A stretch of 42,868 bases of DNA, from positions 1 to 42,868 of the IMG/VR virus record IMGVR_UViG_3300010331_000021. One strand, written 5' to 3'. This document shows positions 1,143-42,868 of this stretch, in pieces. The position numbers and the translations under genes were made by a program. Position 1 is the first letter of the stretch; each line of letters opens with the position of its first letter. This DNA is from a virus. The notes under the pieces were generated by a model. It was not told the DNA's origin, searched no databases, and worked only from the letters and a program-made list of their open reading frames with translations.

Positions 1143-1397
1143 TCACTTATCTACCATGATTTGAGCACATACCTTGCAGAGTTTTACACCACCGAATTCA
1201 ACCAGACCTTCAAATGTACCACGGCTCATGCAACCCGGCTGATACTTACGAAGGACGATCTCCTCCTTATCATTCGTGAAGATTTCTAAGGCGTCTCCCT
1301 CTTCAATCCCCATCGTGCGACGTAACTCCTTAGGTATAACAACGCGACCCAGTTCATCGATCCTTCTAACAATTCCAGTAGCTTTTTTCAAATTCAT
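1143..1397 (-). CDS. AbrB/SpoVT-family DNA-binding protein
   Basis: 84 aa. GIVRRIDELGRVVIPKELRRTMGIEEGDALEIF matches the SpoVT/AbrB looped-hinge-helix signature. It overlaps the upstream gene by 4 nt. Confidence 0.8.
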   Translation of the reverse strand: MNLKKATGIVRRIDELGRVVIPKELRRTMGIEEGDALEIFTNDKEEIVLRKYQPGCMSRGTFEGLVEFGGVKLCKVCAQIMVDK

Positions 1398-3304: not shown

Positions 3305-3688
3305 ATGAATATGGGTGATCGTATAAAGGAATTAAGGATTTCCAAGGGATACACTCAAGAGGAACTTGGAAAGAGACTTGGACTGAAAAAGGCCGCTATT
3401 CAGAAGTATGAGAATGGGGGTGTCGAAAACATTAAAAGGTCGAAGATCAAACTTCTTGCAGACGCTTTGGGCGTAACCCCTTCATATATAATGGGATGGG
3501 AAGAACCAACTGCAGCCTTGAAATATCAGTCAAGTGAGGGATTATCCGAAGTTGAGAAGGAACTAATTTTCAGTTACCGTAAACTATCCCACGATAACCA
3601 GATGAAGGTTACTGGCATAATTGAATTTATGTTTGATGAGGAATCAGCCACGGAGGAGGAATACGAGGACAAGATTAAAAGAGCGTAG
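3305..3688 (+). CDS. CI-like XRE-family repressor with no S24 peptidase domain
   Basis: 127 aa. IKELRISKGYTQEELGKRLGLKKAAIQKYENG is a classic XRE HTH. GGGAGGAAG RBS present. It is divergent from the cro-like gene. Confidence 0.85.
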   Translation: MNMGDRIKELRISKGYTQEELGKRLGLKKAAIQKYENGGVENIKRSKIKLLADALGVTPSYIMGWEEPTAALKYQSSEGLSEVEKELIFSYRKLSHDNQMKVTGIIEFMFDEESATEEEYEDKIKRA

Positions 3689-3711
3689 GGGTAACGTGGT
3701 ATACGTAAATT

Positions 3712-4962
3712 TTGGGAAGAAATAATGAGAGGGGGTTACTTATCATGGAAGGTCATTTTTATAAACCTAATTGCAAGTGTCCCAAAGATGCTAAGAAATG
3801 TACTTGCGGAGCTACGTGGTCTTACATCGTCGACATTGGGGTTGATCCCAAAACTGGAAGGCGCAAACAGAAAAAGAAAGGCGGGTTTAAGACAAAAAAA
3901 GATGTTACCTTGGCCGCCGCTATCGTGATACAAGAACTTGATCAGGGGACCTTTATTCAGGAATCGAGTATTACGTTTAAGGACTTTACCGCGGAGTGGC
4001 TAGCTCTTTATCATGGAACTGGAAGGGTTAAGATAAGTACAATAAGAATCAGGAAACACGAAATTGGCAGGCTTAAGCCATTTTTCTCCTTGAATAAAAT
4101 TAAGACCATAACAAGGAAAATGTATCAAGGGGCATTGAGTGATTTAGCGAGACAAGGACTTTCATATGGTACCCTCATAGGTATCAATTGCACGGGGCGA
4201 ATGATCTTTAAGAAAGCCGTAGAATTGGGCTATATAAAGACTGACCCAACTCAATACGCTGTTATTCCAAGGACACAGAAAACAGTCGAGGAACTTGAGG
4301 CTGAGGAAGAAATCCCTAAATACCTTGAGAAGGAAGAATTGTCACTCTTTCTAAAAACGGCTAGGGGTAAGGGTTTGGAAATGGATGTCGTTACTTTTGT
4401 TACCCTGGCTTATACTGGAATGAGGGCTGGCGAGTTATGCGCCTTAAAGTGGAAAGATATTAACTTTGAAAATCACACAATAAGTATCACTAAGACTTTG
4501 TATAGCCCAACAAATAATACAAGAAAATATGAGTTGCTTCCACCAAAAACGAAGACCTCTAGGAGGGTGATCGAAGTAGATGCTGTTGTTTTGACGGAAC
4601 TAGAAAGCCATCGAGTGAAACAAAACATTGTTAAGATGAGCCATAGGGATACGTATCACGATAAAGATTTTATCTTTGCTAAAATGAAAAAGAGCCACGG
4701 CTATCCTGAACTCGTAACTATTGTTGAGACACGCATGTCTAGGTTGCTCAAGCTAGCAAAGTTAAATCAGGACCTAACACCTCACTCCCTAAGGCACACT
4801 CATACATCGTTATTAGCCGAGGCTAAAGTCGGACTCGAAGAAATTATGGAACGTCTTGGACACGCCAACGACAAAATAACAAGAAGGATATATCTGCATG
4901 TAACTAAAGCTATGAAAAAAGAGGCTTCCCAAAAGTTCGGTGAACTAATGAGAACCCTCTAA
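3712..4962 (+). CDS. int: Tyrosine integrase with an N-terminal Cys-containing arm-type DNA-binding domain. The likely start is the ATG at 3745.
   Basis: Catalytic signature seen: YTGMRAGEL (R), HSLRHTH (H-x-x-R), LGH and RIYLH (Y). GAGGGGG lies 10 nt before the ATG at 3745. Confidence 0.9.
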   Translation: MGRNNERGLLIMEGHFYKPNCKCPKDAKKCTCGATWSYIVDIGVDPKTGRRKQKKKGGFKTKKDVTLAAAIVIQELDQGTFIQESSITFKDFTAEWLALYHGTGRVKISTIRIRKHEIGRLKPFFSLNKIKTITRKMYQGALSDLARQGLSYGTLIGINCTGRMIFKKAVELGYIKTDPTQYAVIPRTQKTVEELEAEEEIPKYLEKEELSLFLKTARGKGLEMDVVTFVTLAYTGMRAGELCALKWKDINFENHTISITKTLYSPTNNTRKYELLPPKTKTSRRVIEVDAVVLTELESHRVKQNIVKMSHRDTYHDKDFIFAKMKKSHGYPELVTIVETRMSRLLKLAKLNQDLTPHSLRHTHTSLLAEAKVGLEEIMERLGHANDKITRRIYLHVTKAMKKEASQKFGELMRTL

Positions 4963-5318
4963 AAATATATTCCCAATGTTACCTTTTCGTTACCTTAGGA
5001 GGTGTTTCTATTTTAGGATCGTTGGTATATAAGGGCTGAGCGGTTGACATAGCATCATAAGTGTTATGACCCTTGATAAGAAATTAATACTGTAACATCT
5101 TACTTCCTGTGCTACAAGGCGCATACAGTAAGGATTCCTCCTTTTTAGCATTGTAACATCTTTAGCCCGTTTCATCCCCTTTATCCCGATTATGTTACCT
5201 AAAGGTTACCCAAGAGGGTAGGTACAGGTATAATTAATATTATCACATAGCAGGAAAAGACCCACCGGACACAGAACTGAATACTCTAGAAAATAGCAAA
5301 GAAGGAAGGTTTTGTTTT
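4963..5318. other. Candidate attP region
   Basis: Non-coding and directly downstream of int. It has two pairs of GTTACC at an 11-nt period (4978/4989 and 5194/5205). These flank an 11-nt direct repeat TGTAACATCTT (5091-5101 and 5152-5162). Confidence 0.5.
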
Positions 5319-5960
5319 ATGAGTTTTTTAAAGAAGATCCCAGGCTTTAGATCGGGAACAAAGTGGAAAATGGCCGTTGCCATCATAGGGTATCTGGCTA
5401 TATTAGGTATAGTCAGTGATGTGGTTGGTGGAAATTCGGATACAGCACCAGCGACAACCCCTGCCACGATCGTTGAAAAAACACCTGAACAAATAGCCAA
5501 GGAAAAGGCAGATACCGATTTAAAGGTAAAACAAGCAGAAGAAGCGAAGGTAGCTGTGGATAAAATGAACTCTGATATATTGTATTATTCTCAAGTCAAG
5601 GCAAAGGAAGTATTTAAGGATAGATTTATCAAGGCTGAAAAAGATGATAAAGGTATACTTATCACTTTCAAACTGGCTGAAAATCTTAGTATGAAAATGG
5701 TTGGAGATGGAGGACTTATAGACTCTGGTAAATTGTTTGCCCTTTATAAAGGACACATGGGAGATTATACTGACGTAACTTGTCTTGGTACTTTCCCTAT
5801 GAAGGATAAATACGGAACCGTAACAGATGACGTTATATTTGCCATTACCTTAGATAAAGAAACTATCCAGAAAGTAACTTTCGAGAATATAAGCCCAACC
5901 ACAAATTTAATACCCTTATCCAGCTCACACAGGATAAGGCCTGAGCTGTTGACTAAATAG
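5319..5960 (+). CDS. Membrane-anchored secreted-type protein (moron, candidate lysogenic-conversion or exclusion factor)
   Basis: 213 aa with an N-terminal TM segment (WKMAVAIIGYLAILGIV). Own promoter: TTACCC, 17 nt, then TATAAT at 5229-5234. It is followed by a terminator hairpin. Confidence 0.7.
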   Translation: MSFLKKIPGFRSGTKWKMAVAIIGYLAILGIVSDVVGGNSDTAPATTPATIVEKTPEQIAKEKADTDLKVKQAEEAKVAVDKMNSDILYYSQVKAKEVFKDRFIKAEKDDKGILITFKLAENLSMKMVGDGGLIDSGKLFALYKGHMGDYTDVTCLGTFPMKDKYGTVTDDVIFAITLDKETIQKVTFENISPTTNLIPLSSSHRIRPELLTK

Positions 5961-6023: not shown

Positions 6024-6539
6024 TTATACGGAAGGTTGAACGAGATTGATCACCGGTTGCTCTACTGGTGGCAGCGGATCGGGTACAGGGGCAATCGTAA
6101 TAACAGGATCATTCTGCTTCATAACCCAGACCCCCGCCTCTGCAGTACCGCGAATAACCTGTTCTAATTCTGGTGTAACCTCATGACCGGTTAACTTAAG
6201 CATATTAACAGCGTATTGGGTAGCCCGCTCTTTTCTCATGCCAGGGAGTATTTGACCGCTATCATATAATTGTTGTGCCGAATGTACACCTGCCTGCGTT
6301 ACTTTAAGGACCGTCTCAATAAAATTCTCTATGGGTACCGGGATAAACGTCTTAATAGTTGTGTTGGCAGCTATAGCAGTATCCACGATGGTATCTGCTA
6401 GCTGCAGCTGCTTGCCCGGATCTCTGCCCTGCTTAACTAGCGCTTGGATTCCGTACATCGTACCAAAGAAACATAACAACGCTAGGATGGCGAACAGGAG
6501 CATTATGGTTTGAATATTCATTGCGTTTTCCTCCTTCAT
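6024..6539 (-). CDS. LL-H-family-like holin or lysis membrane protein. The RBS favours the ATG at 6521.
   Basis: N-terminal TM segment (IMLLFAILALLCFFGTMYGI) followed by a soluble domain. AAGGAGG lies 8 nt before the ATG at 6521. It sits next to the endolysin. Confidence 0.6.
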   Translation of the reverse strand: MKEENAMNIQTIMLLFAILALLCFFGTMYGIQALVKQGRDPGKQLQLADTIVDTAIAANTTIKTFIPVPIENFIETVLKVTQAGVHSAQQLYDSGQILPGMRKERATQYAVNMLKLTGHEVTPELEQVIRGTAEAGVWVMKQNDPVITIAPVPDPLPPVEQPVINLVQPSV

Positions 6540-6625: not shown

Positions 6626-7300
6626 TTAAGCCAATTCTAACTTTTTGCAAGCGAAACCAAGTTTGTTAATATCGACTATCGCCTGCGCTGAAAGACTTTC
6701 ACGAACGCGAACAGTTAAGTAAATATCGTCTGGTGCAATGATTTTAGCCACGGTTGACACCCCCTTTACGGCTGTTTGTAGTGCCACAGGAGCAACCTTA
6801 ACGACCACAGGAATTTTAAGGGTAACAATCATACTGTCGATAGCCGATAGAAGCTGATCCCACGTTTTACCGTGATTAGCAAGGAATTGTATAGGGTCCG
6901 TGTGATTTGTTTCTTTCCACTTTGCCGATATGCCACGGTGAGAATACACGTTAGGGCCGGTTGACCATCCATAACGAACGCAAGCGTCAGCGACTAGCCA
7001 AACGGTCCTATTCCAAACTTCGGCGAAGGGTTCAATTTCGCACATTTCAGCAGAAAGGAATTTACTGTTTGCGGTTTGTCCTGCGTGCCAGGCTTGCTCA
7101 GATTCTGGAATACAACGAATAATACTCTTATTATCTACAAAGTAGTGAGAGGATGCCTGACGATCCCCACCGTTGAAGTAATCGTGTTCATTCTGCGCTG
7201 TTGCGTTTGGTGTAGCCGTTGAGTGGATGACAAAGCCGAAAGGGGAGAGGGGTTTTTTTGAACGGTTGTATTTAATGAGCTGTTCTGAGATTTGATACAT
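6626..7300 (-). CDS. N-acetylmuramoyl-L-alanine amidase endolysin (Amidase_2/PGRP type) with a C-terminal binding domain
   Basis: 224 aa with VIHSTA, AWHAG and NHTDP motifs typical of T7-lysozyme-like amidases. Confidence 0.85.
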   Translation of the reverse strand: MYQISEQLIKYNRSKKPLSPFGFVIHSTATPNATAQNEHDYFNGGDRQASSHYFVDNKSIIRCIPESEQAWHAGQTANSKFLSAEMCEIEPFAEVWNRTVWLVADACVRYGWSTGPNVYSHRGISAKWKETNHTDPIQFLANHGKTWDQLLSAIDSMIVTLKIPVVVKVAPVALQTAVKGVSTVAKIIAPDDIYLTVRVRESLSAQAIVDINKLGFACKKLELA

Positions 7301-7318: not shown

Positions 7319-7606
7319 TTATTTAAAAATTGCCAACGCCGCAATACCCGCAGCAATAATGGTCCCAACGATAGTGCGCCAAAGCCAAGTATTATCGGCT
7401 TCGAGTTTGTTAATCCGATGAGTATTGGATTTTGAACGTGCCTCCGTTTCAACGCTCATTATTTCATTAGTTTCCACTTTCAGCTTGAGATCATTCTGGC
7501 TGTCTAACTTAGTCTCCACTCTCACTAAGCGTTCACGTATATCCATTAACACATCTTGTTCCAATTGCAAACTCACCGCCCCTTCACCTCTATTCGTTGA
7601 TACCAA
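7319..7606 (-). CDS. xhlA: XhlA-like haemolysin/holin-associated protein. The likely start is the GTG at 7576.
   Basis: Coiled N-terminal part plus a C-terminal TM segment (WLWRTIVGTIIAAGIAALAIF). GAGGTGA lies 7 nt before the GTG at 7576. Confidence 0.7.
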   Translation of the reverse strand: MVSTNRGEGAVSLQLEQDVLMDIRERLVRVETKLDSQNDLKLKVETNEIMSVETEARSKSNTHRINKLEADNTWLWRTIVGTIIAAGIAALAIFK

Positions 7607-7742
7607 TAAGGATTATCAAACAAACTAAAGTGGTGGATCACGCTCCGAAGCATTCATGCAACCTCTCCTTTCGGGCATAAAAATAACCACCAATATGGCG
7701 GTTTGAAAATAAATGATGGGTACAGCACAAAGAACGCCGGGG

Positions 7743-7898
7743 TTAAACCTCAGCGTTCTTTTCTAGATATTCCTTTAAAATAGTTATGACCAGATTATTG
7801 AAACTCCTATTTTGCTTTCTTGCTAACTCTTCCAGGTCTTTCTTCATATCCTTTTCGATAATCAGATTAGACCTAACCTTATCTTTACCTATGCTCAT
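7743..7898 (-). CDS. Ribbon-helix-helix (CopG/Arc-like) regulator, 51 aa
   Basis: Own codon-by-codon translation: MSIGKDKVRSNLIIEKDMKKDLEELARKQNRSFNNLVITILKEYLEKNAEV. GAGGTG RBS present. It is divergent from the plus-strand cassette and below the ORF-track cutoff. Confidence 0.7.
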   Translation of the reverse strand: MSIGKDKVRSNLIIEKDMKKDLEELARKQNRSFNNLVITILKEYLEKNAEV

Positions 7899-7916
7899 AA
7901 TTAACACCTCATGGTT

Positions 7917-7967
7917 ATTATACCATAGTACAATTGTGTTGCATAGGTTACGTAACTATGGTATAAT
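7917..7967. promoter_or_regulatory. Back-to-back extended -10 promoters embedded in a 12-bp perfect inverted repeat
   Basis: TTATACCATAGT (7918-7929) and ACTATGGTATAA (7955-7966). Plus strand: TTGCAT (7939-7944), 17 nt, then TGgTATAAT (7959-7967). The minus strand carries the mirror-image TGGTATAAT (7925-7917). Confidence 0.6.
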
Positions 7968-7999
7968 AAGGCATAAACAAATTTGAGGGGGAAACAAAG

Positions 8000-8491
8000 A
8001 TGACAGAAGAAACATTTGAAGGTAATAAATTCGCTATACAGGTAATCTCGAAAGGTTCGTTTGTAGACAATGCTGGAGGTGGAAGCTCCTTTCTGGTGGA
8101 GGTAACCACCGTCCGCATGAACCACGTTGCGTTGGATGCGTGGATAATGTCAGCAACTATGAACCATCGCGATTGCTATGACACTAACGAAGAATGGGAA
8201 GCGCATAAAGCCGAGTATGTGGAACGCCGCAAAGCTGTGATAGCGCAGATGGTCGAGGCATTAGAAATTGACTCAACCAAAGGAAGCGTCAGTATCACGC
8301 AGTCACAGTCGGAAGTGTTTACCGTTGTGCATATTCGTGAAGTTGCTAAGGTTTATAAAAGGGATGGAATGAACTGTGTTGATCTTAACGGCACCTACAC
8401 ATATCTACCTGATGATCTAAGCGTGGGGCCTGGCAAGTGGATAGATGGCGAATACTACAGCGAAATCGCCATAGTCCAAACAAGTATATAG
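8000..8491 (+). CDS. Hypothetical 163-aa protein, first gene of the plus-strand cassette
   Basis: GAGGGGGA RBS 7 nt upstream. No recognisable motifs and no TM segment. Confidence 0.7.
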   Translation: MTEETFEGNKFAIQVISKGSFVDNAGGGSSFLVEVTTVRMNHVALDAWIMSATMNHRDCYDTNEEWEAHKAEYVERRKAVIAQMVEALEIDSTKGSVSITQSQSEVFTVVHIREVAKVYKRDGMNCVDLNGTYTYLPDDLSVGPGKWIDGEYYSEIAIVQTSI

Positions 8492-8544
8492 CTCAAAACC
8501 ACCAGCCGGGGCCAGTACCGGCGCCAGAGAAAGGAATGAAAAAT

Positions 8545-8736
8545 ATGTTTGAAAATTGGACTGATGATGAACTTCGTAACGCGATCTGGATGGATAAAGA
8601 CGGCATGGTGCCAAAGGGCGGTTACCCTCGGGAATGGTACGAAGATGAGTTATACCGAAGAACTGGAAGCAATAAAGGTTTTCATGAGGAATACCCTCAA
8701 GGCCAGCCGGGGCCAATCCGGCGAAGGAGGAAATAA
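8545..8736 (+). CDS. Hypothetical 63-aa protein with a basic C-terminus
   Basis: AAAGGA lies 9 nt before the ATG at 8545, inside the longer track ORF 8437..8736. Sequence: MFENWTDDELRNAIWMDKDG...RRRRK. Confidence 0.5.
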   Translation: MFENWTDDELRNAIWMDKDGMVPKGGYPREWYEDELYRRTGSNKGFHEEYPQGQPGPIRRRRK

Positions 8737-8737
8737 C

Positions 8738-9004
8738 ATGGACTATGAATCAATGTGGGCAGAACTTTACGAACTATTATTGAGTTGTGAGGAAAATGTC
8801 AAATCCAACATGGATGTTGTTAGAAAGATGAGAGCGATCAGGGAGAAACATTTTGAGGATAAGTTGCACCGTAAACCCCTAACCGCATCTGAAATGGGGA
8901 AGATTGGCGGGGCCAGCACATCAGAGGCCAAGAGCAAGTCTAGCGCGGCGAATGGCAAACTTGGCGGACGGCCAAAGAGGACTATTGATACTAAAGAACA
9001 ATGA
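8738..9004 (+). CDS. Hypothetical 88-aa protein with a Gly/Lys-rich basic tail (GKIGGASTSEAKSKSSAANGKLGGRPKR)
   Basis: AAGGAGGAA lies 5 nt before the ATG at 8738, in frame within track ORF 8549..9004. The stop of the previous gene is 2 nt upstream. Confidence 0.6.
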   Translation: MDYESMWAELYELLLSCEENVKSNMDVVRKMRAIREKHFEDKLHRKPLTASEMGKIGGASTSEAKSKSSAANGKLGGRPKRTIDTKEQ

Positions 9005-9006
9005 GA

Positions 9007-9045
9007 AAGCACTCGTCTCCGCCTCCACAGCTAAAACGAGTGCTT
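9007..9045 (+). other. 10-bp stem hairpin directly after the stop of 8738..9004
   Basis: AAGCACTCGT (9007-9016) pairs with ACGAGTGCTT (9036-9045), with a 19-nt loop. There is no clear U-tract. Confidence 0.4.
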
Positions 9046-9108
9046 ATATCAGACACCGGAGTGCCTTACTAACATTGTAAGCGATCGCTCCGGGTTAGAC
9101 AAGAGGGA

Positions 9109-10122
9109 GTGATTAATTATATGGCTGCACAAATACTTAGTTCCACCGCCGAGATTATGCTCGAGCAGATTACAGACGCTATCGATTGCCCCAATGCGGA
9201 CAAGCAGTATATCCAGCAAGCAATTACCGAAATACTAGCTCAGTACGATATTAAACCCGCCTTGGTCATGTCTGGCAATCCGGATCTAGCGCAGAAGATA
9301 AAGCTGTTTCTATCTGGAAAACGTCTGGAGGGTCTCGCGAAGTCAACTCTTAAAGGTTACGGTCATGAACTCCGCCTCTTCTCTCAATACGTCCCAAGGG
9401 CAACGGACGAGATAACTACAGGAGATATCCGGATTTACCTGAGCGAGTTTGAACACCTCAAGACATCTTCGCTCTCAAAAAGATTGTCGGTACTCAAATC
9501 AATGTTTGGATGGTTAACAGCTGAGAAGATAATCCCTAATGACGTGACAAAGCAAATAAAGCCGCCGAAGAAGGAGCAACGGATTCAAGAATACTTGAAT
9601 ATTGGAGAACTTGAGATGGTCAGAGAGGCATGCATTACTCCGAGAGAACGTGCGCTAATGGAAGTGCTGTATGCAACTGGCGGAAGGCTCTCTGAGATTC
9701 AGAAGATGAGTCGCGGAGATATCGACTATCAGTCCATGTCGGTATCGGTAATCGGGAAAGGAGATAAACAGCGCATTGTGTATTTTTCACAGAAAGCAAT
9801 ATACCACTTGAAGAAATACTTAATGCGTAGACTAGATGATAATCCAGCCTTATTTGTATCCATACGTAAGCCCCATGGCCGGCTCTCTGGGCGCGGGATT
9901 GAACATGTAATACAAGTTATATCAGATCGGTCTGAAGTAGAGAAAAATGTGCATCCGCATATATTTCGTCACACCTTCGCAACATTGCTTTTACAAAATG
10001 GTGCAAGTTTAATAGCCGTGCAGGAGTTACTTGGCCACTCCGATCCTAAAACGACAATGACCTACGTGAGCATTACATCGGAGCAGAAAAAACAATCATA
10101 CAATCAATACTTTGTTCAATAA
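9109..10122 (+). CDS. XerC/XerD-like tyrosine recombinase, the second recombinase in the genome. The likely start is the ATG at 9121.
   Basis: Catalytic residues seen in ATGGRLSE (R), HIFRHTFAT (H-x-x-R), LLGHSD (H) and MTYV (Y). An N-terminal SAM-like domain is present. Confidence 0.85.
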   Translation: MINYMAAQILSSTAEIMLEQITDAIDCPNADKQYIQQAITEILAQYDIKPALVMSGNPDLAQKIKLFLSGKRLEGLAKSTLKGYGHELRLFSQYVPRATDEITTGDIRIYLSEFEHLKTSSLSKRLSVLKSMFGWLTAEKIIPNDVTKQIKPPKKEQRIQEYLNIGELEMVREACITPRERALMEVLYATGGRLSEIQKMSRGDIDYQSMSVSVIGKGDKQRIVYFSQKAIYHLKKYLMRRLDDNPALFVSIRKPHGRLSGRGIEHVIQVISDRSEVEKNVHPHIFRHTFATLLLQNGASLIAVQELLGHSDPKTTMTYVSITSEQKKQSYNQYFVQ

Positions 10123-10150
10123 CGTCCTTCGGGGCGTTCTTTTTTTTTTT
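10121..10150 (+). terminator. Rho-independent terminator
   Basis: AACGTCC-TTCG-GGGCGTT stem-loop followed by a 12-nt T-run, starting at the recombinase stop codon. Confidence 0.8.
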
Positions 10151-10288
10151 CGTGGCATCGGAGTGAATCCTCATTTAATACAATTCAAATTGTAACCACT
10201 AACTATGTCGCATAATGCGTCAAATGTTCAGTAGGAGGGCAAAGAAATAGAAGCATCTCTGCTCCCTGCTTTGCCCTCGGTTATAATA

Positions 10289-10441
10289 CTACGCTGGAAT
10301 TGGGACAATCTTGTCTTGGAACCCATCAGCAATCAATATAAGATCTGTATCCTCTTGATAGGGTTTATAGGCTGTTTTTGAAAATACCGTTAAATAGTCC
10401 AACTTGTCGATCTCAATGCGCATTGCAAAATATACTGCCAT
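10289..10441 (-). CDS. 50-aa hypothetical ORF
   Basis: Own translation: MAVYFAMRIEIDKLDYLTVFSKTAYKPYQEDTDLILIADGFQDKIVPIPA. GGGAGGTGA RBS present. It follows the tail-fibre-associated gene. Confidence 0.4.
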   Translation of the reverse strand: MAVYFAMRIEIDKLDYLTVFSKTAYKPYQEDTDLILIADGFQDKIVPIPA

Positions 10442-10467
10442 ATCATTCACCTCCCTTCACCTCCTTT

Positions 10468-10794
10468 CTACATTAAACTCATAGCAAGAAAATCTACCAT
10501 AGAGTTTGTGGCTTCTAGACTAGATTTAAGAATAACATTGTCAGCGTTAAGCTGAATAAACTCTTCTTCTCTTGTTAAAGGTCTGTCTACATACTCATAC
10601 CACAAAATATTAGTAACTGGATTGAAATACAATTTATCTGCTTTGAATGGTCTAATTTCTGGTTCTGGGATGTCGATAGTTATTAATACGCCATCTTCCT
10701 TTTGTTCCTCTGACAATTCTTGCGGTATGAAATGAATACCTACCACTTGATATCTTTCAGGCGTTTCGATTTTGATAAACAGCAATTTTTCCAT
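10468..10794 (-). CDS. Tail-fibre-associated hypothetical protein (position as for PBSX XkdW-type genes)
   Basis: 108-aa ORF directly downstream of the tail fibre gene. Function is inferred from position only. Confidence 0.6.
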   Translation of the reverse strand: MEKLLFIKIETPERYQVVGIHFIPQELSEEQKEDGVLITIDIPEPEIRPFKADKLYFNPVTNILWYEYVDRPLTREEEFIQLNADNVILKSSLEATNSMVDFLAMSLM

Positions 10795-10807
10795 TAATAT
10801 TCCTCCC

Positions 10808-13516
10808 TTATATAATTACGCGCCTGTCTCTGACTAAGAGAATAGGAGCCTGAGTATTATTGACATTAACACCAGTGCCACCGTATATTACGCCGTTAGA
10901 GTAACCAAGAGAGGTTTTATTGGGGCAGTTGTCAAAAGACAATAACCCATTTGACTCGTTTACAGTAAGCCCCGTAGTTTTATCTATCCTTCTAATCTTA
11001 GTAGCGTCAATCGCATAAATCATTTCATCCGGTGTGACTATTCCCACACCTGCGCCAGTAGTAAAAGTAATGTTAGACCATATAGGTGTAATCGTTGGTG
11101 GGTTTGCGTACTTATACACACGACCTGTAGAATGGAATATATAGATGCAATCTGGAAATACATGTATACTGGTTCCAAATCCATAGGTCCCTAACGTAGT
11201 AGTACTAACGAGTGTACCCTCTGCCAAATTAATCTTTGAAATGCCGGGTTTCTGACTAGAAACGTAAAGATAGGCTCCATCCTCGCTAAGATTAGCACCA
11301 TAGATATTGCTTTCTCCACCCGCTAACCATGAACGACTATAAATTGGAGGTTGTACTGTTGGATCAAACTTTTGAATCCACCCTGCATCATTAACTACAT
11401 AAATATTACTAGATGGGTCAGTGAACATCCATATTAAGTTGTAAGATCCTACCGCTCTTTGATACTTAAAGACTAAAGCAGACGAGTATATAAGTATTAA
11501 TAAGTTTTTAACAATAGCAATATCGCCATTAGGTAAACAACAAATACCTGATATTTGAAAACCACTTGAGTAGGGTACGCTTATGTTATCCGCTATGACA
11601 CCTGTCTGTAAATTTGTTTTTATTAAAATCTCAGTATGACCAGAATACACATAGGTGCCATCTGCATCTGCTGCAATTACTGACTCAGTACCTGACATAC
11701 CTTTATAAGTTCTAACCAGAGGCGGTGACCCCGCTAAGGACGAATACAGCATAGTGTCACCCGGTCCATAAACTTTTGTATTTGTACCAATCACTTGCGT
11801 TTTGGCGTCTGTTGAATAAGCAGTCTTTCCGCTAGCTATATCAGCAGGTACGGCAGTTCCTGTTAAAGCTAATGTCCCAGTTAAACCTGTGTCATTGTCG
11901 TTGCTGAATGTTTTTCCCGCTAGTACGTCACCAACAACGGAAGTTCCCTCTGCACTAGCTTTGATAAAAAAACAATTACTCGCTAAGTTGTACCAGACCG
12001 TCACGGCTTTCCCTGCTGTTAGATTAGGCGCAATAACGGTGCTTGGTTTGTATAAAGACTTTCCATTTATGGTCGTCGCTGCCCCTGCATTATTTGCACT
12101 AACAACAAAGGTTTTAGCATAACCGTCTATCAACGCTGGAGTAGATACCGTTATTGCGGTCGCTGTTCCTGTTGCTAGTTGATACGCTATATCCGCCTTA
12201 TGCGCAGTAAGGTCTGCGTTCGTAGTGTCTAAAGAGGTTTGTGGAGCATAGAACGCAGGCAAGTTTCCTCCCAGTTTCTCAGCGTTATCCACTACGCCAT
12301 TACCAGCAACATCATAAACAGACTCGAGCATATCCCCTGTGCCTAATCCATCTGCACCAGTTGCGCCTGTTGCACCTGTGTCTCCTTTAATGCCCTGTAT
12401 CCCTTGGATACCCTGTGCGCCCGTTGCACCTATTGGTCCTTGAATACCCTGTGAGCCTGTTGCACCTGTGTTGCCTGTTACCCCTTGTATACCTTGGATG
12501 CCCTGAGTACCTGTGTCTCCTTTTTGTGCAATAAGTATCCAATAAGTAGCATTTGTTGGGATGTTGCCTGTGCTTGCTAGGATATTTTGGTAAGTGTTAC
12601 CTAGATAGGTGACTTTGTTTAATGGGACATATGCATGGGTATTGTTATAGACCTCTAAGAGCTTGAATGCTGTATTATTTGATTGTCGAGTATTTTCTGC
12701 ACCTACTCTACCCGTTTCAGCAGTTACTCTGTTAGCCTCTGCTGTATTAGCATTAGTGGTAGCTGTATTCGCATTGGTAGTTGCAGTATTCGCGTTAGTG
12801 GTCGCGGCATTAGCATTTGCGGTTGCTGTAGTTGCGCTAGTTGTGGCAGTAACAGCGTTTGCTGTGGCTGTGTCTGCATTTGTTTTAGCGGTATTAGCAG
12901 CCGCTGTGGCTGTAGTAGCATTAGAGGTTGCTGCGACGGCATTATTTGTTGCTGTTCCAGCACTAGCAGTTGCAGTATTGGCATTGGTTGTGGCTGTATT
13001 TGCAGCAGTAGTTGCTGTGATGGCTAACTGTCTAGTTGCCTCAGTTTCCGTAATCTTGTTAGTTGCTTCGAGAATTTTAGCGTCTAATATGGGGATCTCA
13101 TTTGTGCTAAGTACCGCCTTATCACTCGCTAATATAGCGGTGACATTAAAAACAAATTGTGCGGTGCTTAGTTTCTTTCCCAATAGAGAGAAACTAATTT
13201 CTGCTTTTACGGTTCCCACTGCCGCCAGAGTATTGGATTTAAGGACGCATTCAAGTTTGCCAGTTGTTCCCCCAGCTAAGATAGCAACACCCGTTGTTAA
13301 GTCTTGGATCACGAGCGTTCCGTCTGGCTTAGCAAAGGCTATCTCTATGTCCTGTCCTGCAATGGATACTGGTTGACCACCATCGACTATGGTAATTTCT
13401 AAGACTGACGTGTCGATATTGTTTTGCACAAAATTGATATTCAAGAGAGAACGTTGTTTAAAATCTAAGGTTACTTTGTATCTATTTTCCAAGGTTACAC
13501 CCCCTATTTTATTCAA
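10808..13516 (-). CDS. Tail fibre / receptor-binding protein. It has a BppU-like N-domain, Ala/Thr/Asn heptad repeats, a collagen-like G-X-Y run and a large C-terminal domain.
   Basis: 902 aa. [11 protein letters not shown]...[11 protein letters not shown] looks BppU_N-like. There are about 16 heptads of the A-x-T-A-x-x-N type. The G-X-Y run reads [58 protein letters not shown]. Confidence 0.85.
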
Positions 13517-42471: not shown

Positions 42472-42868
42472 TTAAATTTCAGGTGTTTCAGTTTCGATGA
42501 CAACCACGCCTCGGAAACGGATCCGGATATATTGGATCAGTACCAGGTACGCCTCACCATCCTGACTATCCCCGTGTGTTTTTAGCACGGCGGCTTCAAA
42601 CTTATCGATCGAGCCTTGGAAACAACCGCGTGTAATCTCAATAGTTTCCTCTTTGGTCATGTACGCGGTAAGCGTGCCACTCTCTGAACCCACTGAGGAA
42701 AACCATGCTACGTGTTTTTTCGAGGACACCCGAGCATCGCCGGACACCCAAGCATCGCCGGACACCCGAGCATCGCCGGACACCCGAGCATCGCCGTACA
42801 CCCGAGCATCGCCGGACACCCGAGCATCGCCGGACACCCGAGCATCGCCGGACACCCGAGCATCGCCG
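42472..42868 (-). CDS. Hexapeptide-repeat protein, 3' part. It is open at the right edge and continues the frame begun at 375..1.
   Basis: The frame stays open to position 42868. It has repeats (S/Y)GDA(R/W)V and then a unique C-domain: SSKKHVAWFSSVGSESGTLTAYMTKEETIEITRGCFQGSIDKFEAAVLKTHGD... Confidence 0.8.
   Translation of the reverse strand, partial: GDARVSGDARVSGDARVSGDARVYGDARVSGDARVSGDAWVSGDARVSSKKHVAWFSSVGSESGTLTAYMTKEETIEITRGCFQGSIDKFEAAVLKTHGDSQDGEAYLVLIQYIRIRFRGVVVIETETPEI
42727..42868. repeat. The same 18-nt tandem repeat as at 1..234, with 7 full units plus 16 nt
   Basis: Counted directly. 42799-42868 is identical to 1-70. Confidence 0.95.

Follow-up and report, generated by a model that had tools for sequence, protein, structure and literature searches.

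A separately regulated mosaic cassette with a second Xer-type recombinase at the tail/lysis junction of a temperate phage

Extra recombinases and accessory units in phages

In addition to a canonical integrase, or in place of it, some phages encode an Xer-type tyrosine recombinase in or at the end of the structural module. Examples can be found in Clostridium phage phiCp-D, Terrisporobacter phage TPELB_ph1, Tyrovirus (gp50) and phIS3501 (p22). The gp50 gene is located between the neck and tape-measure genes, and an 11-bp inverted-repeat site follows right after its stop codon (PMC9703825); p22 is known as the 'second integrase' (PMC3335513). In published accounts the role of such extra recombinases is called unclear (PMC9703825; PMC3335513). 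Here, a recombinase of this type is described that is encoded by the last gene of a 2.4-kb cassette (positions 7743-10150) in a stretch of viral DNA of 42,868 nucleotides (IMG/VR record IMGVR_UViG_3300010331_000021, positions 1 to 42,868), which is called the window below. The cassette consists of a gene for a ribbon-helix-helix (RHH) regulator and a divergent operon of three small open reading frames (ORFs) and the recombinase gene. It is read, with about even confidence, as a repressor-controlled accessory module of the moron type, mosaic in composition, whose recombinase would most likely resolve or circularise phage DNA.

The window recombinase shares its class and its late-region location with the four examples, and with those of phiCp-D and TPELB_ph1 also the exact position at the tail/lysis junction. 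It differs from all of them in that its gene is on the opposite strand and part of a unit that contains an RHH regulator of its own as well as cargo ORFs, a structured leader and terminators. Furthermore, the inverted-repeat site found after the gp50 stop codon has no counterpart at the window recombinase.

Morons are autonomous promoter-gene-terminator units inserted between phage modules. With its own terminators and promoters (the latter predicted from the sequence), its place between conserved late modules, its opposite orientation and its presence in some relatives and absence from others, the window unit has the marks of a moron. However, it is larger and composite (a regulator and four genes, including the recombinase), and its recombinase is positionally conserved across a wide phage group instead of occurring sporadically.

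A self-contained unit between the tail and lysis genes

A preliminary description, made from the letters of the window, had presented the block as a self-contained plus-strand cassette, bounded by terminators and holding a 51-residue RHH gene divergent from an operon that ends in a XerC/D-like recombinase. The separate regulation and termination at the tail/lysis junction is borne out by the promoters, terminators and flanking genes. The strand assignment holds for the part from 8000 to 10122 and fails for the RHH gene (7743-7898), which is on the minus strand like the late genes. The 51-residue product is an Arc/CopG-like transcription regulator that is indeed divergent from the operon and matches the Arc-like repressor family phrog_582 (3.9e-9). 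Its matches to Pfam RHH_5, Arc and RHH_1 are weak and below the cut-offs, and a RelB-like match reaches E 0.002 and 18 bits against a cut-off of 50.

Between the regulator gene and the operon, the divergent promoter/operator region (7915-7969) contains a perfect 15-bp inverted repeat (TTATTATACCATAGT / ACTATGGTATAATAA), the arms of which are 100% complementary and 25 nt apart. Each arm can be read to hold an extended -10 box (TGGTATAAT), one for each of the divergent transcripts, and a -35 element TTGCAT precedes the plus-strand box at 7939-7944 with a spacer of 17 nt. The inverted repeat is a likely candidate for the RHH operator. By binding the repeat with both extended -10 boxes, the RHH protein would control its own gene as well as the plus-strand operon.

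Both bounding structures named in the preliminary description are real, and a third was found. A hairpin directly after the RHH stop codon (7729-7761, minus strand; 16-nt arms, 88% complementary and 1 nt apart) is the putative terminator of the regulator gene, and relatives carry an equivalent hairpin (AAAGACGC..GCGTCTTT) directly after their regulator. The additional terminator-like hairpin with T-run (7685-7703, minus strand) has an 8-pair stem and a ATTTTTAT tail, and is located between the RHH gene and the lysis genes. On the other side, the operon ends in an intrinsic terminator at 10121-10150 (plus strand; stem 10121-10138, then a T-run), and a near-identical terminator is present 3' of the recombinase in most relatives.

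A second recombinase with a conserved active site

The recombinase gene (9121-10122, plus strand) encodes a Xer-type protein of 333 residues, most likely starting at the ATG at 9121, which follows a ribosome-binding site (RBS, GAGGGAG, 9103-9109), rather than at the GTG at 9109. Its Pfam domains are Phage_integrase (3.8e-34) and the SAM-like N-domain Phage_int_SAM_1 (4.7e-10). They are preceded by an N-terminal extension of about 55 residues that lies outside the coverage of any structure. Among the NCBIfam models of the Xer family, the XerA equivalog just reaches its cut-off (222.8 vs 220), and XerC (206 vs 335) and XerD (197 vs 330) are far short of theirs. All six catalytic residues R-K-H-R-H-Y are conserved in the alignment to XerD (1a0p). 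They are found in the motifs LYATGGRLSE (R), GKGDKQR (K), HIFRHTF (H, R), LLGHSD (H) and TMTY (Y), and the active site is, as judged from this alignment, intact.

This enzyme is not the phage integrase. The features of a lysogeny integrase (an arm-type domain, adjacency to a repressor and to attP repeats) are absent at the cassette recombinase and all present at the gene at 3712-4962. Since a separate cI/Int/attP module (3305-5318) handles integration, the cassette recombinase is a second recombinase.

The closest homologues in deposited phages are those of the isolated phages phiCp-D (40%) and TPELB_ph1 (35%), where the gene order is tail genes, recombinase, holin and endolysin. TPELB_ph1 has a second annotated integrase gene after its lysis genes. 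phiCp-D looks plasmid-like; its genes include those for ParM, for a replication protein and for a protein similar to TraD/FtsK, and the annotation of record positions 21,639-54,735 shows no further integrase. By analogy, its recombinase would most plausibly be a multimer resolvase. Relatives of the L008 type (related loci are given L numbers in this work) carry FtsK and Replic_Relax. It is proposed that the window recombinase most likely acts on the phage DNA itself, in multimer resolution or in circularisation of the genome during replication or in an episomal state, which would match the role expected of the homologue in phiCp-D. Such a task is also likely to have been the ancestral one of the recombinase lineage. 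The proposal recalls P1 Cre/lox and the Xer/dif multimer resolution of plasmids and chromosomes in that a Xer/Cre-class recombinase is found in a temperate phage, with a homologue in a ParM-bearing plasmid-like phage, and in the monomerisation or cyclisation role. It differs from these systems in that no lox- or dif-like site was found, that a canonical integrase is present and that no partition genes were seen.

Several points weigh against this role. Neither a core-type inverted repeat nor a dif-like sequence, with two inverted arms of about 11 bp and a spacer of 6-8 bp, was found near the gene as recombinase site: the palindromes with 11-bp arms in 7550-10500 are a terminator and two coincidences inside ORFs, and they are not conserved in relatives. 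As the window phage integrates, it is hard to see why it should need a multimer resolvase. Among the recombinase homologues, several have been broken up by frameshifts or lack the N-terminus (L005:7540-8572, L042:4559-5555, L050:8001-8970, L041:8232-8882 and L207:10924-11751), and the gene may be dispensable or decaying, although assembly errors in the metagenomes are possible too. The lack of a second integrase in phiCp-D is a matter of annotation only, with positions below about 14 kb outside the inspected part. Finally, the tight repression, opposite orientation and insulation by terminators would equally fit a lysogenic-conversion or host-directed function.

A recurrent insertion point and a mosaic cassette

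Relatives of the recombinase with 52-87% identity were found in 43 viral loci. In nearly all informative ones (more than 20 viral contigs) the gene is located between the tail-fibre and lysis genes, in either orientation. Temperate phages of Desulfosporosinus-like Clostridia repeatedly have insertions at this tail/lysis junction. Two set-ups occur. In one, the recombinase is opposite to the late genes and is preceded by a small regulator gene and between one and four small ORFs; in the other, it has the orientation of the late genes and is accompanied by little else. The latter, with neither regulator nor cargo, is the case in L041, L046, L048, L049, phiCp-D and TPELB_ph1. A canonical integrase is also present in L040, L043 and L207.

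The combination of the first small ORF of the operon (ORF1) and the recombinase occurs in at least five backbones (the window, L005, L008, L030 and L207). The same ORF1-recombinase cassette, with 66-87% protein identity, is found in phages of siphovirus type and of myovirus type, whose flanking tail and lysis genes share no detectable similarity. Within the cassette, the parts vary. The regulator is of the RHH type in the window and in L217, and an HTH_26 protein takes its place in other relatives; an RHH copy of 86% identity adjoins a recombinase of 67% identity in L217/L223. The middle ORFs differ between cassettes and are absent in L005. In DNA comparisons with L207, L005 and L008, the homology of the window breaks at 7985, 8523-8540, 8698-8740 and 9003. 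The cassette is an accessory module of mosaic composition, with the small ORFs as probable interchangeable cargo, and the cassettes would reassort by recombination at conserved linkers, namely the border sequences, the leader of the recombinase and a short element termed E (see below).

At the left border, the sequence GGGCATAAAAATAACC..AAAATAAA around 7685-7703 is kept in related cassettes. The arrangement of two tandem terminators and GGGCATAAAAATAACC is the same in L005, L008, L033, L040, L047 and L037, and window positions 7632-7765 align with L207 at 73.5% DNA identity. At the right border, outside the cassette proper, the motif GCATAATGCGTC (10210-10221) is found at the end of the tail module. 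Many related phages share the form GCGCATAATGCGTC(A/T)ACTG at the 3' end of their tail modules, with copies at L008:9407, L030:2398, L052:9049 and 11479, and L199:13547. Since the motif also ends the tail modules of cassette-free phages, it is a backbone feature that marks the insertion point. In L199 the junction is empty: the tail genes are followed by the motif, a terminator and a small ORF that is XhlA-like by inspection. In L016 the tail and lysis genes are adjacent with no cassette between them. In L052 there are two copies of the motif and in L036 one clear and one degenerate copy; each pair flanks minus-strand genes, in L036 a 530-residue ORF.

Two candidate recombination sites were rejected. 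One is the motif GCATAATGCGTC, which also marks the ends of tail modules where a recombinase is missing altogether. The other, a 16-nt repeat at 7580-7595 and 10453-10468 considered as att, turned out to be a pair of similar ribosome-binding regions.

The same cassette at the same junction of unrelated backbones, the conserved border sequences on both sides and the empty site in L199 (tail motif, terminator, lysis gene) might suggest a small nested mobile element, the recombinase of which would integrate and excise the 2.4-kb block at the tail/lysis site of different phages. This had been offered as an option in the preliminary description. Of that option, the movement between phage backbones stands. 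Self-mobility is not supported: no core-type site was found, and a repeat search of the window detected no att-like direct repeats flanking the block. Moreover, the motif at the right border is a backbone sequence that phages without the cassette also have, the homologues listed above reside at the junction co-oriented with the late genes and free of regulator and cargo, and the modules inside the cassette reassort independently. A nested element is therefore considered rather unlikely. In the relatives the recombinase behaves in part as a conserved late-region gene, while the small ORFs do not.

As the recombinase gene adjoins the tail-fibre genes, a DNA invertase like Gin/Cin or Rci that switches host range by inverting fibre segments was considered too. 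A 1.13-kb recombinase segment is in fact found in opposite orientations in two relatives, L247 and L245. However, neither the window nor five relatives contain inverted repeats or alternative inverted fibre segments, and the L247/L245 segment is without fibre genes and has junctions that share only 3 nt. A fibre invertase is very improbable.

The rearranged segment itself (L247:758-1887 vs L245:2897-4022; also in L214, L265 and L267) is inverted in otherwise collinear contigs of about 89% identity. It comprises the distal part of a small ORF, the leader, a recombinase about 34% identical to that of the window, and the terminator of the latter. The 3 nt shared at the junctions are GAT/ATC, and the C-terminus of the small ORF differs by orientation. 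The inversion looks like an old rearrangement and not like a programmed switch.

The small ORFs and the E element

The two small ORFs that follow ORF1 encode proteins of 66 residues (8536-8736, plus strand; 63 residues if counted from the second Met) and 88 residues (8738-9004, plus strand). The three ORFs had been given as 163, 63 and 88 residues and without recognisable domains; the latter applies to all of them in Pfam, PHROGs, NCBIfam and PADLOC, and for the second ORF a length of 66 residues is to be preferred. A stretch of 51 residues of the 66-residue protein is 88% identical in L033. The 88-residue protein has a helical N-terminal part and the Gly/Lys-rich basic tail noticed before, which contains GRP and is AT-hook-like by inspection. 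It has only two near-full-length homologues, its remaining matches covering the tail alone. One of these homologues (L205) immediately precedes a Xer-like recombinase gene where tail and lysis genes meet, and the other (L203) adjoins a canonical integrase.

In the public gene call, a single ORF of 145 residues (8567-9004) in the frame of the 88-residue ORF replaces the two, and positions 8549-8737 are open in two frames. Two genes are favoured on sequence grounds, because each of the two ATG codons follows a conserved E element and RBS and because the homologues of the 88-residue protein begin at the same Met.

The first copy of E (8502-8523, plus strand, CCAGCCGGGGCCAGTACCGGCG), for which 0 matches would be expected by chance, precedes the RBS and ATG of the 66-residue ORF, the second (8702-8724, plus strand, GGCCAGCCGGGGCCAATCCGGCG) those of the 88-residue ORF. 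Together with the RBS behind it, the second copy also supplies the last 12 codons of the 66-residue ORF (QGQPGPIRRRRK). The consensus, (G)GCCAGCCGGGGCCAATACCGGCG, is 23-24 nt long and GC-rich, with RBS and start codon following within a few bases. In related phages E is found before more than 12 unrelated ORFs and in 61 distinct contexts, always on the coding strand. A tyrosine recombinase is encoded 160-1000 nt downstream on the same strand in about 60-65% of these contexts. The E-linked recombinases belong to three subfamilies with a mutual identity of only 25-34%. Window positions 8698-8740 are 88-91% identical to E of L207, L005 and L008, and the flanks do not align. In L252 (996-1453), three E elements are spaced by about 210-220 nt, each before a small ORF. 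This array is downstream of an ORF that resembles a DNA polymerase fragment by motif inspection, and no recombinase is encoded in the next 2.6 kb.

The dyad symmetry of E comprises only 5-6 bp. As its hairpin is no more stable than those of shuffled sequences, E is conserved at the level of the sequence. It is best described, as far as sequence comparison goes, as a conserved junction and expression element where modules are exchanged. In T4-type phages, PeSL (promoter-early stem-loop) motifs reportedly flank shuffled ORFs in mobile regulatory cassettes, as described by Arbiol et al. in 2010. E is similar in being a short intergenic motif in one orientation before unrelated small ORFs of hyperplastic regions, with exchange breakpoints at the motif. 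Unlike PeSL, however, E has no recognisable promoter. It is a GC-rich 24-mer located immediately 5' of the RBS, and it shows a strong association with operons whose last gene encodes a tyrosine recombinase.

This association allows for an integron- or shufflon-like exchange system, in which the recombinase would recombine E (and/or the leader) and thereby excise and capture single small ORFs. E, leader and tyrosine recombinase would then form a phage-borne system for cassette capture and shuffling that reassorts small accessory ORFs among Clostridia phages. As in integrons and the R64 shufflon, a tyrosine recombinase adjoins several short ORFs in a row with a repeated element between them. E stands at the junctions of interchangeable ORFs and always in one orientation, the ORFs from E to the leader are precisely what distinguishes related cassettes, and the conservation of E in sequence without an unusually stable hairpin points to a protein that recognises it. 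In addition, the second copy of E shares an exact run of 10 nt (GCCAATCCGG) and 11 of 12 positions with the sfx core of the shufflon recombinase Rci (GTGCCAATCCGGT; PMC4176322), a resemblance that is probably coincidental.

Other points speak against it. One E sequence is common to recombinases as different as the three subfamilies, for which a shared site is unlikely. Arrays such as that of L252 have no recombinase nearby, and in L213 and L141 the leader is a plain terminator without recombinase. In comparison with attC sites of 55-140 nt, E measures 23-24 nt with a stem of 5-6 bp, and its copies are all direct whereas sfx sites are inverted. The cassette recombinase fails the integron-integrase model TIGR02249 (95.6 vs cut-off 265). 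Homologous recombination at a conserved expression signal gives the same pattern of exchange. Both the exchange by this recombinase and the capture system built on it are held to be quite improbable. If such a system did exist, it would be analogous in function to integrons and shufflons with different parts, and ORF1 or the AT-hook-like 88-residue protein could be accessory recombination factors.

The structured leader of the recombinase

Between the 88-residue ORF and the recombinase, a leader (9007-9120, plus strand) contains hairpin 1 (9007-9045), hairpin 2 (about 9055-9093) and the RBS of the recombinase. A leader of about 115 nt is kept in 23 loci according to a covariance model (R1), in 20 of them with 72-134 bits and in three weakly with 26-28.5 bits. 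In the R1 alignment, which was fitted to the model and is hence biased toward structure, 95.7% of the cells are paired and compensatory changes are seen in 5 of the 8 pairs of hairpin 2. One pair of hairpin 2 alternates between U-G and C-G, which indicates an RNA transcribed from the plus strand. The two window hairpins fold with z-scores of -4.8 and -2.5.

Upstream ORFs without relation to each other extend into hairpin 1 and consequently share the C-terminal ending ESTRP. In L213 and L141 a U-run comes after hairpin 2 and the recombinase is missing, which implies that the leader element can act as terminator. From its sequence, we infer that the leader may separate the recombinase from the cargo ORFs as an attenuator or insulator, and a role at the RNA level would apply to E as well. 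A DNA site or a promoter was considered for the leader too. Both are disfavoured by the U-G/C-G alternation and the use as terminator in L213 and L141, and the -35/-10-like hexamers embedded in the leader are poorly spaced. Searches of leader and E against Rfam gave no relevant match at E <= 1 or the gathering threshold.

A search of genome contigs with the pattern of hairpin 1 returned 120 matches. Most are unrelated terminators; the real ones are limited to the Desulfosporosinus loci L150, L141 and, weakly, L125. In L044 (7830-8000), L045 (6300-6470) and L049 (7830-8000), where the recombinase homologues are 55-60% identical, a different conserved sequence is found upstream (ATGGTAAAATATAAGCAGG...), with hairpins apparent by eye and no Rfam match.

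ORF1 and the toxin-antitoxin and defence readings

ORF1 (8000-8491, plus strand) encodes 163 residues. Residues 1-116 correspond to a phage protein family without annotation on any member, and residues 117-163 form a separable, beta-rich extension. The family yields 77 matches in a word-indexed search and 239 clusters at 50% identity in an exhaustive search, and its alignment contains invariant residues. The AlphaFold2 model of ORF1 has a predicted local distance difference test (pLDDT) value of 84. A structure search with it found no PDB analogue (best E 0.15) and one uncharacterised viral match. No family match for ORF1 was obtained in Pfam, PHROGs, NCBIfam or PADLOC. Family scans of all homologues gave nothing consistent, with a single bacHORMA_1 match (E 0.044) that is absent from every other member.

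Most phages with ORF1 lack the recombinase. In them ORF1 is typically located in the early region, as the first gene behind a helix-turn-helix (HTH) or RHH regulator that is divergent from it or adjacent to it. Cro/Ner-like regulators, a Mu-type transposase, ParA/ParB or recombination genes can be found among its neighbours, and some members are fused to an N-terminal HTH that is GcrA-like by inspection. Given these early-region contexts, a function early in the phage cycle fits ORF1 better than a toxin or defence function.

RHH-controlled operons in accessory positions had prompted the suggestion of toxin-antitoxin, superinfection-exclusion or anti-phage defence functions, with ORF1 and/or the small ORFs as effectors that are held off by the RHH protein. 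Its own promoter and terminators and its place on the opposite strand are features characteristic of accessory genes that prophages express during lysogeny. The uncharacterised ORF1 family is found widely among phages, and in one Dehalobacter prophage a ParE toxin is among the neighbour genes of ORF1. However, no toxin or defence match was obtained in PADLOC, Pfam, NCBIfam or PHROGs; the scan of the cassette proteins against PADLOC-DB v2 returned only a DpdH fragment match (E 0.021, 11 bits), which is not credible. The RHH gene is divergent and no toxin is co-transcribed with it, unlike in type II toxin-antitoxin pairs. Furthermore, ORF1 is an early-operon gene elsewhere and the small ORFs are not conserved partners. 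Functions of this kind are unlikely for the cassette: no signature of a recognisable toxin-antitoxin or defence system was found. At present nothing supports a categorically new system either.

The surrounding phage genome

The window, a public metagenome contig, is a complete temperate phage. Its ends share 70 nt (1-70 = 42799-42868), and this overlap identifies it as a circularly assembled, complete genome. A copy of its first 40 nt recurs from position 91. The canonical lysogeny module includes a cI-like HTH repressor (3305-3688) and the canonical integrase (3712-4962), which has an Arm-DNA-bind_4 domain (9.8e-17), SAM_3 and the catalytic domain. The presumed attP region (4963-5318) directly 3' of the integrase contains direct repeats at 4976-5003/5192-5219 and 5084-5101/5145-5162, which are likely the arm-type sites of attP. 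The replication module comprises a DUF2800 nuclease, DNA polymerase A, a VapE-like protein and an SNF2 helicase.

On one side, the cassette is flanked by the minus-strand lysis genes for XhlA (7319-7576/7606), an amidase (6626-7300) and a holin-like protein (6024-6539), and on the other by the tail-fibre genes (10289-13516, minus strand). At 12708-13039 and 12353-12527, the 902-residue tail-fibre gene has Ala/Thr/Asn-rich heptad repeats, with a period of 21 nt and 13 copies in register, and collagen-like Gly-X-Y repeats. It is publicly annotated with Pfam Collagen and BppU_N. A second accessory position is found between the lysis genes and the attP/integrase region, where a plus-strand ORF of 213 residues (5319-5960) matches phrog_8263 and has an N-terminal hydrophobic segment by inspection. 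In the early region, a small MazE/AbrB-type protein is encoded at window positions 1143-1397 (L001:1109-1363, minus strand) and a 240-residue protein with an HTH_23-like motif at 408-1130.

By sequence relationships, the host probably belongs to a Desulfosporosinus-like lineage. In Desulfosporosinus sp. OT, the prophage L150 encodes a recombinase of 71% identity and also has the leader and a variant of E, and the named sources of ORF1 homologues are Desulfosporosinus, Dehalobacter and Sedimentibacter. Among deposited phages no close DNA relatives were found, the sole match being 150 nt of the RHH region to C. botulinum phages. A search for relatives via a 108-residue tail-associated protein found nothing.

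Implications

The second recombinases of Firmicutes phages are often annotated as 'integrase' and left unexplained. The window offers a clean case, since the true integrase is encoded elsewhere. The homologues of the cassette recombinase define a lineage that is positionally conserved at the tail/lysis junction of Clostridia phages. Along with it, three uncharacterised conserved elements have come to light: the ORF1 family of about 115 residues, the covarying leader and the 24-nt junction element. If the latter were a recombination or processing signal, it would explain the reassortment of accessory genes in these phages. If the recombinase resolves multimers, integrative and plasmid-like lifestyles would be linked within one phage group.

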